Shown here one piece after another: positions 3,853 to 59,765 of a stretch of 64,000 nt of DNA (position 1 is the first letter of the stretch; each line of letters starts with the position of its first letter). The position numbers and the translations under genes were made by a program. The notes below the pieces were generated by a model. The model did not search any database. It saw only the letters and a list, made by a program, of their open reading frames with translations, and was not told the origin of the DNA. Source of the stretch: Anaeromyxobacteraceae bacterium (GTDB lineage Bacteria; Myxococcota; Myxococcia; Myxococcales; Anaeromyxobacteraceae); contig JASGHJ010000001.1 of the NCBI GenBank assembly GCA_047602405.1, positions 1,568,001-1,632,000 on the forward strand, in the 5' to 3' direction.

Positions 3853-4749
3853 ATGCCCGAGCTCGCCGAGGTCGAGATCGCGGCGCGGAACCTCCGGCGC
3901 TGGGCGCTCGGGCGCACCCTCGTGGAGCTCGAGGGCGCCCGGGGCGCGGGCTACGTGTTCCGGCCCGCCGGCGCCGCGCGGCTCGCGCGCGCGCTCGAGG
4001 GCGCGCGGTTCACGCACGTCGACCGGCACGGGAAGCAGCTCATGCTGACCCTCGAGCGCGACGCAGAGGGCCCATGCTGCCGGGGTGGGGCCCCGATGAG
4101 CCTTGCTCAGCGGGGCGGGGGGCGCCGAGCCCCCCGTGAAACAGGCCTGCTCGCGCACCTCGGCATGACCGGGAAGTGGCTGAGGAGGAAGGCCTCCGAG
4201 GAGCCGCCGCGCTTCTCCCGCGCCCGGCTCGAGCTCGACGACGGCCACGCGCTCCACTTCGTCGACCAGCGGCTCTTCGGGCGGCTGCGCCTCGTGCCGG
4301 AGGCGCGGTTCGACGCGGTGCCCGAGCTCGAGGCGCTCGGCCCGGATCCCCTGAAGGACGGCATCGACGTGCCCCGGCTCGCGGGCCTGCTCGCGCGCTC
4401 GCGGCTGCCGGTGAAGGTCCGCCTCATGGATCAGGCGATCCTGCCGGGCGTCGGCAACATCGTGGCCTCCGAGTCGTGCTTCCGCGCGAGGGTGAGCCCC
4501 CGCCGCAGGAGCGCGTCCCTCGCCCGCGGCGAGGTCGAGGCGATCGCGGGCGCCATCCTCGACACGGTGCAGGACGCCATCGCCCGGCAGGAGGGGCCGG
4601 AGCTCCAGTACGTCGAGGAGGGCGGCGAGAACCCGTTCCTCGTCTACGACCGCGCGGGCGAGCGGTGCCCGCGCTGCAAGCGCGGGAAGATCGAGCGCTT
4701 CGTGCAGGCCCAGCGCGCGACCTTCCACTGCCCGCGCTGCCAGAAGTAG
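3853..4749 (+). CDS. mutM: Fpg/MutM DNA glycosylase with a repeat-derived in-frame insertion
   Basis: N-terminal PELAEV, HLGMTG, H2TH (DQ..GVGNI) and C-terminal zinc finger CPRC..CPRCQ. Confidence 0.88.
4075..4143 (+). repeat. Repeat family B, in frame within mutM
   Basis: TGCTGCCGGGGTGGGGCCCCG...CGGGGCGGGGGGC...CCCCCCGTGAAACA matches the reverse complement of 55243-55313. Confidence 0.85.
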
Positions 4750-7486: not shown

Positions 7487-8239
7487 ATGGCGAGCCCCAA
7501 AGCGTCCGCGGCGAAGCCCGTCTACAAGCGCATCCTCCTGAAGCTCTCCGGAGAGGCGCTGATGGGCGAGGGCAAGTACGGCATCTCCCCGAAGACGCTC
7601 GTCGCGATCGCGAACGACGTGAAGGACTGCGTCGATCTCGGGGTCGAGGTCGCGCTCACGATCGGCGGCGGCAACATCTTCCGCGGCGTCTCCGGCGCGA
7701 CGGAGGGCATGGATCGCTCCTCCGCCGACTACATGGGCATGCTCGCCACCGTCATCAACGCGATGGCGCTGCAGGACGCGCTCGAGAAGATCGGCGTCCA
7801 GACGCGGGTGCAGTCGGCCATCGAGATGCACCAGGTCGCCGAGCCCTACATCCGCCGCCGCGCCATCCGCCACCTCGAGAAGGGCCGGGTGGTGATCTTC
7901 GCGGCCGGCACCGGCAACCCGTACTTCACGACCGACACCGCCGCCTCGCTCCGCGCCATGGAAATCCACGCGGACGTGCTGCTCAAGGCGACGAAGGTCG
8001 ACGGCGTCTACACCGACGACCCGAAGAAGAACGCGAGCGCCGTGAAGTTCAAGGAGCTCAGCTACATCGACGTCCTGAAGAAGAACCTCAAGGTGATGGA
8101 CTCGACCGCCATCAGCCTCTGCATGGACAACGATCTCCCCATCATCGTGTTCGACTCCACCCTGCGCGGGAACGTGCGCAAGGTGGTCCTGGGCGACGAG
8201 ATCGGCACGACGGTCGGGCGCATGAAGGCGCGGCACTGA
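7487..8239 (+). CDS. pyrH: UMP kinase
   Basis: [27 protein letters not shown] and [11 protein letters not shown] motifs. Confidence 0.98.
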
Positions 8240-8240
8240 G

Positions 8241-8304
8241 CTTCACGGGGGGCTCGTCCCTCGACTCCGGCCCGCTGCGCGGGCCTACGCTCGGGATGAG
8301 CGGG
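8241..8304 (+). repeat. Family B end plus family A, between pyrH and frr
   Basis: TTCACGGGGGGC-TCGTCCCTCGACTCCGGCCCGCTGCGCGGGCCTACGCTCGGGATGAGCGG. Confidence 0.9.
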
Positions 8305-39622: not shown

Positions 39623-40977
39623 CGCAGCCGCCGAAGCCCCACATCACCGTCGAGGCCCGCGACTTCACCCGCTCCGCACTGTGGGTCGCGCTCTACGTCC
39701 TCCTCGCGCTCTACCCGCTCCTGTGGCTCGCGGCGGTGCCCGTGCCACGCGGCGCGACGTTCCGCGACGACCTCGGCGGCGCGCTCGGCTTCCTCGCGCT
39801 CTCGATGATGGCGATGCAGTTCCTGCTCACCGCCCGCTTCACCTGGCTCGCGCCTCCGTTCGGGACCGACCTCGTCTACGCGTTCCACCGGCACATCACC
39901 GCCGCGATGGTCGCGTTCGCGGTGCTCCACCCGCTCGTGCTCCTCGGCGGCGAGTTCTGGACCTGGTGGGAGCTGCTCCTGCCGTGGGAGGCGCCCTGGG
40001 AGATGGGCGCGGGCGTGATCTCGCTCTACGCGCTCCTCGTGGTGTCGCTCACGAGCTGGTTCCGCAAGCGCTGGAAGCTCCCGTACGACGGCTGGCGGAA
40101 GGTGCACGGTATCCTCGCCACGGTGGCGGTCGTGCTCGGGCTCTGGCACGGGCTCGCCGCGCAGCGCCTCCTCGAGGCGCCGGTCGTCCGCTGGCTGTGG
40201 CTCCTCTGGACGCTCGCCTGGGCCGCGCTGATCCTCCGCGTGCGCATGGCGAAGCCGCTCACGCTGCTGCGCCGGCCGTACGTCGTCCACGAGGTCCGGC
40301 CCGAGCCCGGCGACGCGGTCACGCTCGTGCTCGATCCGAACGGCCACCCGGGGTTCCGCTTCCGCTCGGGCCAGTTCGCGTGGCTCTCCGTCGGGAGCTC
40401 GCCCTTCGCCGCGGCCGAGCACCCGTTCTCGATCGCCTCCTCGAGCCAGCGCGCGCCGCGCATCGAGATGCTCATCAAGGCCGCCGGCGACTTCACCCGC
40501 GGCCTCGCCGAGCGCGTGAAGGAGGGCGATCGGGCCTACGTCGATGGGCCCTTCGGCACGATGAGCATCGACGCGGTGCCCGACGAGGACGGCTACTGCT
40601 TCATCGCGGGCGGCGTCGGGCTCGCGCCCTGCCTCTCGATGATCCGCACGCTGGCCGACCGGGGCGACCGCCGGCAGCACGCGCTCGTCTACGCGACCGT
40701 CGAGTGGGACAAGACCCCGCACATCGAGACGCTGAAGGCGCTCCAGGAGCGGCTCGCGCTGAAGGTCGTGCACGTGGTGGAGAAGCCCCCGCAGGGTTGG
40801 ACCGGCGAGTCGGGCTTCATCACCCAGGCGATGCTCGAGCGGGTGCTCCCGACCGGTGGCCGCCGCTCGTACTTCATCTGCGGCCCGCCCCGCATGATGG
40901 ACGTGGTGGAAAATGCGCTTGCACGGATGGGCGTCCCGCTCGGGCAGATCCACTCCGAGCGGTTCGACCTTGTTTGA
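39619..40977 (+). CDS. Ferric reductase-like transmembrane flavocytochrome (bacterial NOX-like)
   Basis: TM His pairs, HPFSI, GDFT, DGPFG, IAGGVG.AP and CGPP motifs. Confidence 0.9.
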   Translation: MTQPPKPHITVEARDFTRSALWVALYVLLALYPLLWLAAVPVPRGATFRDDLGGALGFLALSMMAMQFLLTARFTWLAPPFGTDLVYAFHRHITAAMVAFAVLHPLVLLGGEFWTWWELLLPWEAPWEMGAGVISLYALLVVSLTSWFRKRWKLPYDGWRKVHGILATVAVVLGLWHGLAAQRLLEAPVVRWLWLLWTLAWAALILRVRMAKPLTLLRRPYVVHEVRPEPGDAVTLVLDPNGHPGFRFRSGQFAWLSVGSSPFAAAEHPFSIASSSQRAPRIEMLIKAAGDFTRGLAERVKEGDRAYVDGPFGTMSIDAVPDEDGYCFIAGGVGLAPCLSMIRTLADRGDRRQHALVYATVEWDKTPHIETLKALQERLALKVVHVVEKPPQGWTGESGFITQAMLERVLPTGGRRSYFICGPPRMMDVVENALARMGVPLGQIHSERFDLV

Positions 40978-41089
40978 CGGGGGCGCTCGTCCCTCGACTC
41001 CGGCCCGCTGACGCGGGCCCTACGCTCGGGATGAACGGGCCGCCCCCGCCCCGGCGAGGCGGCTCGCCGGGGCCCCACCCCCGGCAGCA
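40971..41089. repeat. Family B element with a family A element nested inside
   Basis: TGTTTGACGGGGGCG[A copy]CGCCCCCGCCCCGGCGAG...GGGGCCCCACCCCCGGCAGCA. Confidence 0.88.
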
Positions 41090-55131: not shown

Positions 55132-55242
55132 GACGCGCTTCTCCCCTGCTGGAGGCGTCGTCCCCTCGACGTCTCCGCGTCACTACGCAGGACGAGCTCC
55201 ACATTCATCGGGCCTGGCGACCGCCGCCAGGCCCGATGTCTT

Positions 55243-55313
55243 TGTTGCACGGGGGGCCGTAGGCCCCCCGCCCCGTCGAGCGGAGCTCGCCGGGGCCCCA
55301 CCCCTGGATCAGC
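55243..55313 (-). repeat. Repeat family B without an A insert
   Basis: TGTTGCACGGGGGGCCGTAGGCCCCCCGCCCCGTCGAGCGGAGCTCGCCGGGGCCCCACCCC. Confidence 0.85.
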
Positions 55314-55431
55314 TCCGCGCTCCCGCGCCTTTGGCGCGGGGGCGCTTCGCTGGCGGGATCCTGGGGGCGGTCTGATGGGGTTCTGGGGGCGGGGTGCTGG
55401 CGGCGGGGTTCCGGGGGTGGGGTGGTTCCCC

Positions 55432-58587: not shown

Positions 58588-58706
58588 TGCTGCCGGGGTG
58601 GTGCCCCGACGGGCCCCTCGGCAAGCTCGGGGCCGGCGGGGCGGGGATCCGTTCATCCCGAGCGCAGGCCCGCGAAGGCGGGCCGGAGTCGAGGGACGGG
58701 CCCCCC
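58588..58706. repeat. Family B element with nested family A
   Basis: TGCTGCCGGGGTGGTGCCCCG...CGGGGCGGGG[CCGTTCATCCCGAGCG..GGAGTCGAGGGACG]GGCCCCCCG. Confidence 0.82.
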
Positions 58707-58712
58707 GGCCGA

Positions 58713-59765
58713 TCAGGGCCCCTCCGACGCCCAGCCAGGCGAGCGGCCGGTCGCCCGGCCGAGCCACTCGAGCAGCGGGACGCCACCCTCGGTGAAGTCG
58801 GCCGGGTGGCCGAGCATCGTGTGCCTCGAGCCCTCGACCCGGAAGGCGGCCGCGTTCGGCAGGGGCGCGATCACGTCCCGCACGAGCCGGTCGAGCGCGC
58901 GCTCGAAGCCGGCGGGGCCGAGGAGGGTGTAGCCGCGGATCACCTCGTCCTGGGTGGAGGAGAGGAGGGCGAGGCGGTCGGCGGGGTACCGGCGCGAGAG
59001 CGCCGGCAGGATCCCGGAGAGGTCGAGCAGGCAGCCCTCGCCGCAGATGGGCGTGACCGCCTCGTCGAGCCGCCACGCGAGGACCCACGAGGCGACGATC
59101 GCGGGCGAGAGGTCGGACCCGACGAGCGGCGGCCCGGAGTCGTCGACGAGCGTGCCGCTCGCCGAGGGCCATGCGTCGCGCACCGCGGGGTGGTTCACGA
59201 GCGCGCCGTAGCCGCCGGCCGAGGCGCCCGCGAGCACGACCCCGGCCGGCGACGAGAAGAGCGGGCGCAGCGCGGCGACCGCCCGGCGCACGTTGGCCCG
59301 ACCGCGGTGCTGCATCCGCCCCGGCGCGCCCGGGTAGTCCTGCGAGGCGTCGCCCGCGTGCACGTCGCCGGTGCAGTACGGCACGAACACGAGCGTGAAC
59401 CGCGCGAAGGGGTTGCCGGGGAGGTCGCGATCGAGGATCGAGCCCGGCACGTCCCGCAGGCGCGCGTCGGCCTGGGCGGCGCCGAACGGGCCGCGCGAGA
59501 CGAGCGCCGGGAGCGTCGCGCCGGCGCCGAAGCAGGTGAGCGCGTCCCAGCAGGCGCCGCCGCCGTCGAGGAAGACGAGGAGCCCGTCGCCCTCGCCGCG
59601 GCTGACCGCGACGCCGGTGGGCGAGCCGTCGCCGCACACGCTCCCCTCGACGGGGAGCCAGGTGAAGCGGTGGAGCGGGAACCGCTCCGCGCCGCCGGCC
59701 GGACCGCAGCCGGAGGCGAGGAGCAGGCCCGGGAGGAGGAGCGAGGCGAGGGGGGCGGGGCGCAC
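58713..59765 (-). CDS. Pectin acetylesterase-family lipoprotein
   Basis: Lipobox LASGC; C.DGSPTG, GGGACWD, YCTGDVHAG and GASAGG motifs. Confidence 0.85.
   Translation of the reverse strand: MRPAPLASLLLPGLLLASGCGPAGGAERFPLHRFTWLPVEGSVCGDGSPTGVAVSRGEGDGLLVFLDGGGACWDALTCFGAGATLPALVSRGPFGAAQADARLRDVPGSILDRDLPGNPFARFTLVFVPYCTGDVHAGDASQDYPGAPGRMQHRGRANVRRAVAALRPLFSSPAGVVLAGASAGGYGALVNHPAVRDAWPSASGTLVDDSGPPLVGSDLSPAIVASWVLAWRLDEAVTPICGEGCLLDLSGILPALSRRYPADRLALLSSTQDEVIRGYTLLGPAGFERALDRLVRDVIAPLPNAAAFRVEGSRHTMLGHPADFTEGGVPLLEWLGRATGRSPGWASEGP

Follow-up and report, generated by a model that had tools for sequence, protein, structure and literature searches.

A dispersed hairpin repeat lying in frame within mutM of an Anaeromyxobacteraceae bacterium and probably read as a tolerated loop

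Introduction

In-frame insertion of a dispersed repeat into a protein-coding gene is not in itself new, being known from Rickettsia and from intragenic REPs. The Rickettsia palindromic elements (RPE) are about 150 bp long, lie within genes in nearly half of their copies, and contribute one conserved peptide (Ogata 2000, 2002, as reviewed in PMC10969869). Intragenic REPs of the GTAG/CGTC type are present in tens of copies, form tandem clusters, overlap stop codons, and give rise to inserts of 20-30 aa (Di Nocera 2013, PMC3733652); they have already been reported in repair genes of the helicase/nuclease kind. For Ssn nucleases and their associated repeats (SRM), cleavage has been shown, while expansion of the repeats was raised as a hypothesis only (PMC11893778). 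In SPDIR, patches of 3 to about 100 bp replace host bases at microhomologies, very rarely in wild-type Acinetobacter (bioRxiv 10.1101/2023.11.22.568220). Finally, intrastrand triplex repeats (PIT/BoxC/TM) consist of three stems with loops of 1-6 nt (PMC4666352).

The locus considered here lies in a window of 64,000 nucleotides (G000:C1:1568001-1632000) from a two-contig, 6.16-Mb genome of 74% GC, designated G000, in which mutM (fpg) carries a copy of a repeat that we call family B. A first-pass annotation of the window had drawn attention to the copy and compared it with the Rickettsia elements.

The mutM gene and its insert

The MutM ORF (Table 1) matches the Pfam models Fapy_DNA_glyco, H2TH, and zf-FPG, and a structural search with its model returned MutM as the best match (E 2.6e-25); against the NCBIfam Fpg model it scores 198.7, under the cut-off of 212. 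All of the Fpg/MutM hallmarks are present: the N-terminal Pro-Glu, the catalytic Lys, the intercalating Met/Arg/Phe, the H2TH motif, and the Cys4 zinc finger with its Arg (for several of these roles see bioRxiv 10.1101/2020.02.28.970129 and PMC9266487). P2, E3, K61, H102, M105, R140, F142, and C296 are invariant throughout the MutM alignment, and C272, C275, C293, and R288, conserved in at least 90% of the aligned sequences, are intact here. A minor peculiarity is the Ala at position 5 (window 3865-3867), where the other aligned orthologues have Pro, except that of the closest relative, genome G010; since it is common to both, Ala5 must be older than the insert.

G010 is a sister genome (~94% identical). 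The mutM genes of the two differ at 47 of 825 aligned bases, and in G010 the residues ERDGDDLGLL stand opposite a 33-residue stretch here, so that mutM is longer here by 69 bp net and its protein by 23 aa (298 vs 275 aa). The first-pass annotation was right in seeing a palindromic repeat in MutM, which it placed at 4062..4143, but the repeat DNA begins at 4075, 13 bases later, and its estimate of about 25 extra residues comes down to 23 in the G010 alignment; that the reading frame is preserved is borne out by the intact 298-aa ORF. Position 4075 is the commonest start among the BLAST matches, and repeat-bearing contigs of public sequencing runs begin there too. The host codons just before it read AEGP, and a related allele without the repeat has AEGA in the same turn. 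The insert peptide is basic and Arg/Gly-rich, with a Cys-Cys pair, and it puts Thr97, in place of the Leu or Val of most orthologues in the genus, just before Gly98.

Of 41 genomes searched for mutM, 38 gave a match. As had been predicted, the insert is absent from relatives, which have a short turn at this place: none of the 26 aligned orthologues carries it, neither G010 nor the 25 others, with three of the 29 relative loci left out of the alignment (L020, which has a different insert elsewhere; L021, which is frameshifted; and L029, missed by the script). The L020 gene (1492-2379, genome G005) is a curiosity in its own right: it encodes a G-rich insert of ~20 aa after the HLGMTG strand, at another position and unlike family B. 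The empty allele as in G010 was also found in contigs of four public sludge runs from four studies. None of the listed contigs of public runs carries the filled allele, which is known from one assembly only; the MutM protein cluster has a single member, and a search with the insert peptide returned MutM itself as the sole match, with no second protein among 73 candidates.

Table 1. Features of the window discussed in the text (positions within the 64,000-nucleotide stretch).
Feature	Position	Strand	Remarks
mutM (fpg) gene	3853..4749	+	298 aa; frame unbroken through the insert
Host beta-turn codons AEGP	4063..4074	+	Align with GDDL of G010; outside the repeat; junction +/- a few bases
Family B repeat copy	4075..4144	+	4075-4143 form 23 codons (residues 75-97); last base common to host Gly98
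First G-tract, with central T	4082..4090	+	T covaries with the base at 4116
Hairpin A	4091..4115	+	Fixed C4/G4 base, variable self-complementary stem, mostly C-TYY-G-type loop
Hairpin B	4116..4136	+	Closing pair C-G here, A-T in the other subtype
A-rich tail ending in CAG	4137..4144	+	In intergenic copies often overlaps the stop codon of an opposite-strand gene
Family C core with family B tail	8236..8301	-	Between pyrH and frr; plain family B there in G010
Hybrid, family B shell with family C core inside hairpin B	40969..41089	-	Within the window
Family B copy, other subfamily, longer left arm	55240..55350	-	Intergenic
Hybrid, family B shell with family C core	58588..58716	+	Within the window

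Family B in the genome and the genus

The annotation's suggestion of a genome-wide repeat family is well supported. BLAST with the MutM copy gives 81 hits at E<=0.01, an iterated profile search likewise finds 81 (E<=1e-3) but none when run on the reversed genome, and a strict pattern has 67 matches, against 0 in the control. Within the genus, 28 of 37 genomes contain family B, while the controls taken together gave one match; of 11 genomes of the taxonomic family, 9 contain it, and among 50 genomes from outside that family 3 have a single copy each. The particular relatives first named for the MutM copy fared less well: the one at 55243 is a family B member but of another subfamily (79% over 62 bp), and those at 40971 and 58588 match in their left parts (83% over 48 bp and 89% over 28 bp, respectively) but are hybrids that enclose a second repeat family. 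Much better matches, at 95-97% over 62-68 bp, occur elsewhere in the genome, beyond the window. Rfam gave two chance-level matches only for the repeat, and no earlier description of family B in myxobacteria was found in a literature search limited to non-subscription journals and a minority of supplements.

Each unit runs from a short left arm through an interrupted G-tract, hairpin A, and hairpin B to an A-rich tail ending in CAG. Seven genomes yield 101 different sequences for hairpin A, yet 552 of its 693 inner pairs are Watson-Crick, so that the structure is maintained as the sequence drifts. The folding z-score of 4055-4150 is only -1.26, so the case for the hairpins rests on covariation, not on energy. 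A separate covariation links the bases that interrupt the two G-tracts (window 4086 and 4116): in seven genomes the combinations are T..C in 150 copies, A..A in 41, T..A in 2, and A..C in 0, a tighter association than that with the left-arm type a few bases away. This could reflect a triplex, an alternative pairing with the 3' C-tract, or linkage within subfamilies.

In-frame copies in other genes

No open, coding-like frame runs through most of the 81 copies. A codon-score screen placed 8 of the 81 in frame mid-gene, and a ninth, near the start of the Smr gene, was found by eye. The hosts are MutM, KsgA, NFACT, an aldo/keto reductase, Smr, a beta-lactamase-family hydrolase, a kinase-TPR protein, a molybdopterin reductase, and an AddA-like helicase. 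The host frame is kept in all nine, and the copies are read in four of the six possible frames, five of them using MutM's frame or the other frame of the sense strand.

Orthologues were compared for all nine genes: G010 is without the repeat at eight of the sites, and at the other, in addA, it holds a family B copy of another subfamily, likewise in frame. Net gains relative to G010 are 69, 66, 66, 63, 75, and 42 bp, with 23 aa in the kinase and 9 bp in the reductase, whose copy replaces a non-repeat linker. When one pattern and one rule were applied throughout, 7 of 67 copies were in frame here, whereas the six relatives together had 1 of 132 (Fisher p=0.002, for kin that are not independent, with G018 sampled in part and having 7 copies at contig ends, and with a codon model trained on G000).

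Several individual genes deserve mention. The AddA-like gene (G000:C2:2724127-2727726, L043) has two in-frame repeats, one of family B and one of the second family, family C. The family B copy at G000:C1:2150313-2150373 is located within what seems to be the leader of a pseudopilin-like gene and is in frame with an ATG, with a hybrid at that place in G010; another, at G000:C2:1608982-1609042, forms the final ~25 codons of an exported protein, stopping where the next gene begins, and there G010 is empty. KsgA orthologues in two relatives (L051 of G023 and L050 of G022) have long inserts, Thr/Pro-rich or other, at a second loop, close to the one that holds the repeat here. Hypermutation of the flanks near inserts was considered and rejected beyond 3 codons (synonymous differences near vs far, p=0.59, eight genes).

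Site turnover, family C, and an Ssn-like gene

Turnover of family B sites is fast. An orthologous G010 segment is available for 29 of 73 sites, and scoring assigned 4 of these to family B, 2 to family C, and 23 to the empty class, although inspection by eye shows family C variants at two of the 23 and no alignment at two more. In the other direction, 16 of 20 G010 copies are collinear, and the corresponding sites here are empty in 8 cases, occupied by family C or a hybrid in 5, and by family B in 3. Filled/empty pairs show a variable loss of host bases, often with AG or TCAG common at the right junction (by eye, with no control), where a stop codon of the opposite strand is overwritten. No consistent target-site duplication was seen over these pairs (by eye, at ~6% background divergence), and at mutM alone there may be a 2-bp duplication of CA.

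Family C starts with CGTC on one strand and has 141 pattern matches, with 0 in the control. Family C arrays flank a 100-aa GIY-YIG gene at C1:1892791-1893093 (L104:1420-1722, minus strand), and at Ssn-like loci in the genus, flanking repeats are of family C in 14 of 14 cases and of family B in 0 of 14. At least three family B matches were found in 14 of 14 genomes with an Ssn-like gene vs 10 of 23 without, a comparison of related, non-independent genomes in which p-values overstate the association; in six genomes with 16-41 family B matches, one of them 68% complete, the search did not find the Ssn-like gene. Family C cores lie inside family B shells in many copies, and the two families swap at orthologous sites.

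By codon score, 18 of the 141 family C matches are candidates for in-frame copies. Their hosts are presumably DNA ligase, PurL, HrpB, an ABC-F protein, and AddA, to judge by what they look like. The AddA copy was aligned with orthologues, and at the ligase site G010 has another family C variant. Also in this genome are recA-like matches at C1:2324431-2324847 and C1:1844176-1844592, at 71-73% to a RecA fragment of a relative.

Comparison with described repeats

Like RPE, family B is a dispersed hairpin repeat found both between genes and in frame in unrelated genes, apparently at places compatible with the fold. It differs in length (70 bp), in the proportion of copies within genes (~11%), in being read in four frames rather than as one peptide (PMC10969869), and in its host, an environmental bacterium of 74% GC. 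No RPE model is among the NCBIfam hits of five host proteins, RPE having been compared by protein models and by description. The original proposal of a Rickettsia-like process in a DNA-repair enzyme thus seems sound as an analogy, with eight more in-frame copies in unrelated genes, but not as a statement of membership; and although the host is indeed MutM, there is nothing special to repair in a set of nine hosts as varied as these.

The intragenic GTAG/CGTC REPs are alike in copy number (tens), tandem clustering, stop-codon overlap, and insert length (PMC3733652). Family B is set apart from them by its two hairpins and interrupted G-tract, by a tag that is only partly present (5' of the hairpin, where a GTRG tag would stand, the T subtype has GTGG and the A subtype GAGG), and by having no flanked RAYT; the name of the genus does not occur in the accessible text of PMC3733652 or in four of its supplements. 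The small GIY-YIG gene flanked by CGTC-starting arrays that both fuse with and replace family B recalls the Ssn/SRM systems (PMC11893778), but family B itself borders the gene at none of the loci and is devoid of the tag. The SRM consensus has no match in the MutM copy; it also missed the repeats beside the local Ssn-like gene, and is therefore insensitive here. SPDIR offers the likeness of a short patch replacing host bases at microhomologies, but its donors are arbitrary DNA and its events very rare, whereas here one structured family recurs. The terminal inverted repeats of family B are only 3-5 bp long, compared with 15-30 bp in MITEs, and come without a consistent target-site duplication; in contrast to PIT/BoxC/TM, a hairpin of 17-25 nt separates its G-tracts. 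On these criteria family B does not belong with RPE, RAYT-linked REPs, SRM, or MITEs; by analogy, it appears to work like RPE and intragenic REPs while being a member of neither.

How the repeats may move

One alternative accepts that the insert is tolerated and counts family B among the ordinary REPs or MITEs, with an HUH (RAYT) or DDE transposase of its own to move it. GTGG stands just 5' of hairpin A, the tandem arrays and stop-codon overlap resemble REP/BIME (PMC3733652), the ends are CTG...CAG, and the genome has six weak Y1 transposase genes. We nevertheless consider this explanation doubtful: each of the six Y1 genes is more than 10 kb from the nearest family B copy (0 of 6), the Y1 loci examined in the genus have none either (0 of 29, a part of the loci listed), the A subtype is without the GTRG tag, there are no long terminal repeats, target duplication was not seen, and no transposase was recognised beside 16 family B arrays or pairs (by eye, from translations). 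Given the lack of flanking family B copies, a Y1/RAYT mobiliser was rejected. No longer autonomous element between family B ends was found among 93 left ends, with a right-end pattern of high background (349 vs 297). Three near-identical Y1 transposase genes (L033, L034, and L035, at C2:2524469, C1:2221901, and C2:3257262) have C-rich and G-rich inverted ends and are apparently a mobile element.

The model tentatively preferred here is one of patch-like writing followed by selection. Copies would land at many places in the genome; those breaking a reading frame or a folded core would be purged, and those in loops would persist as near-neutral passengers. The MutM copy would have been written in as a short single-stranded patch, annealed at microhomologies and replacing a few host bases, and the likeliest source of such fragments would be an Ssn-type ssDNA nuclease tied to family C. 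A SPDIR-type patch fed by Ssn cleavage is favoured because family C flanks the Ssn-like genes, B/C hybrids occur, and the two families swap sites; against this route stand the missing CGTC tag and SRM motif in the MutM copy, the lack of family B beside all 14 Ssn-like genes, the six family B-rich genomes in which the search found no such gene, and the rarity of SPDIR in wild-type Acinetobacter. As to the route itself, single-strand patch replacement, as opposed to cut-and-paste, is our tentative choice; some other route is less likely, an HUH (RAYT-like) transposase is unlikely, and a DDE/MITE mechanism very unlikely.

Consequences for MutM

A single-sequence fold of MutM was useless (pLDDT 34), but a model built from 27 sequences has a mean pLDDT of 89.2, falling to about 52 at residues 71-90, between strands 62-69 and 95-102. 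As modelled, the insert sits in the beta3-beta4 turn, which fits the surface loop anticipated from the Fpg fold. The active enzyme NEIL2 carries 65 extra residues between beta3 and beta4, for which a role as interaction module has been proposed; its conserved Lys falls between beta2 and beta3, and its intercalating residue between beta4 and beta5 (bioRxiv 10.1101/2020.02.28.970129). The likeness is that of a disordered insert in the same Fpg/Nei turn, and K61 and M105 bracket the MutM insert just as in the NEIL2 layout; the NEIL2 insert differs in being longer and fixed across orthologues, with no sign of a shared origin. Among distant homologues (74 scored of 80), this span has 27-37 residues in 8 of 74, against a mode of 14 and 40 in the MutM described here.

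Outside codons 71-97, mutM differs from that of G010 with dS 0.178, dN 0.017, and dN/dS 0.095, and of the changes assigned to this lineage 24 are synonymous and 2 non-synonymous. Changes from G:C to T:A toward this genome are not in excess (438 vs 539 the other way, in 343,372 aligned bases), and a MutM-null mutation spectrum was rejected on that ground. The intact catalytic residues, the low dN/dS, and the unremarkable mutation spectrum together suggest that MutM with its insert probably still works, although the signals of selection and mutation spectrum may predate a very recent harmful insertion, and the two further Fpg/Nei-family genes in the genome could mask loss of MutM.

Could the insertion nonetheless be a recent and damaging one, persisting by drift or under cover of a paralogue? 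The filled allele is found in one assembly only, the copy is 95-97% identical to intergenic copies and may be young, two paralogues are at hand, and Thr has taken the place of a hydrophobic residue before Gly98. Against this, the frame is kept in all nine in-gene copies, homologues accept long inserts in the same turn, the core is modelled intact, and there is neither decay nor a mutator signature, so that we regard damage as quite unlikely. A selective advantage is more improbable again, whether through tuning of DNA binding or redox response by the Arg/Gly-rich peptide or the Cys-Cys pair, or through tuning of expression by mRNA hairpins: the peptide is basic, the frame usage of five of the nine copies leans toward the sense strand, and the NEIL2 insert at the same turn has a proposed function, but the hosts as a whole use four different frames, none of the 73 candidates is a second protein with the peptide, no relative examined has the allele, and the insert DNA still matches non-coding copies. 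Misjoining of a repeat copy into mutM during assembly is hardly credible, for while the filled allele is in no independent contig and its protein stands alone in its cluster, spanning a 70-bp repeat is easy, the assembly has only two contigs, the nine in-frame cases have distinct variants, and the G010 addA site also holds an in-frame family B copy.

The reading that we prefer is therefore that of a tolerated loop: the repeat is likely translated, giving a stretch of 23 residues that the structure model suggests to be disordered, and the MutM copy is probably a harmless one of nine such copies, read in four frames.

Significance

For MutM itself the answer is likely an ordinary one, a tolerant turn that NEIL2 uses as well. 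What the case contributes is the combination of a close sister with empty sites, a lineage-specific excess of copies within genes, and swapping at the same sites with an Ssn-linked family. A bolder possibility, which we hold to be quite speculative and on balance improbable, is that this lineage is in a burst of transposase-free writing, in which an Ssn-type nuclease releases two interchangeable modules, one a G-rich shell with covarying bases that would suit a DNA triplex and the other a CGTC core, and these are pasted into genes as patches. MutM, AddA (twice), KsgA, and DNA ligase would then be among some 27 proteins to have gained loops of 14-30 residues, at least nine of them since the split from the sister. 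If that were true, comparing the two genomes would amount to a natural experiment on the spread of Ssn repeats and the origin of protein loops. More generally, the filled/empty pairs make it testable how repeats of the CGTC type and RPE-like ones move without a dedicated transposase.
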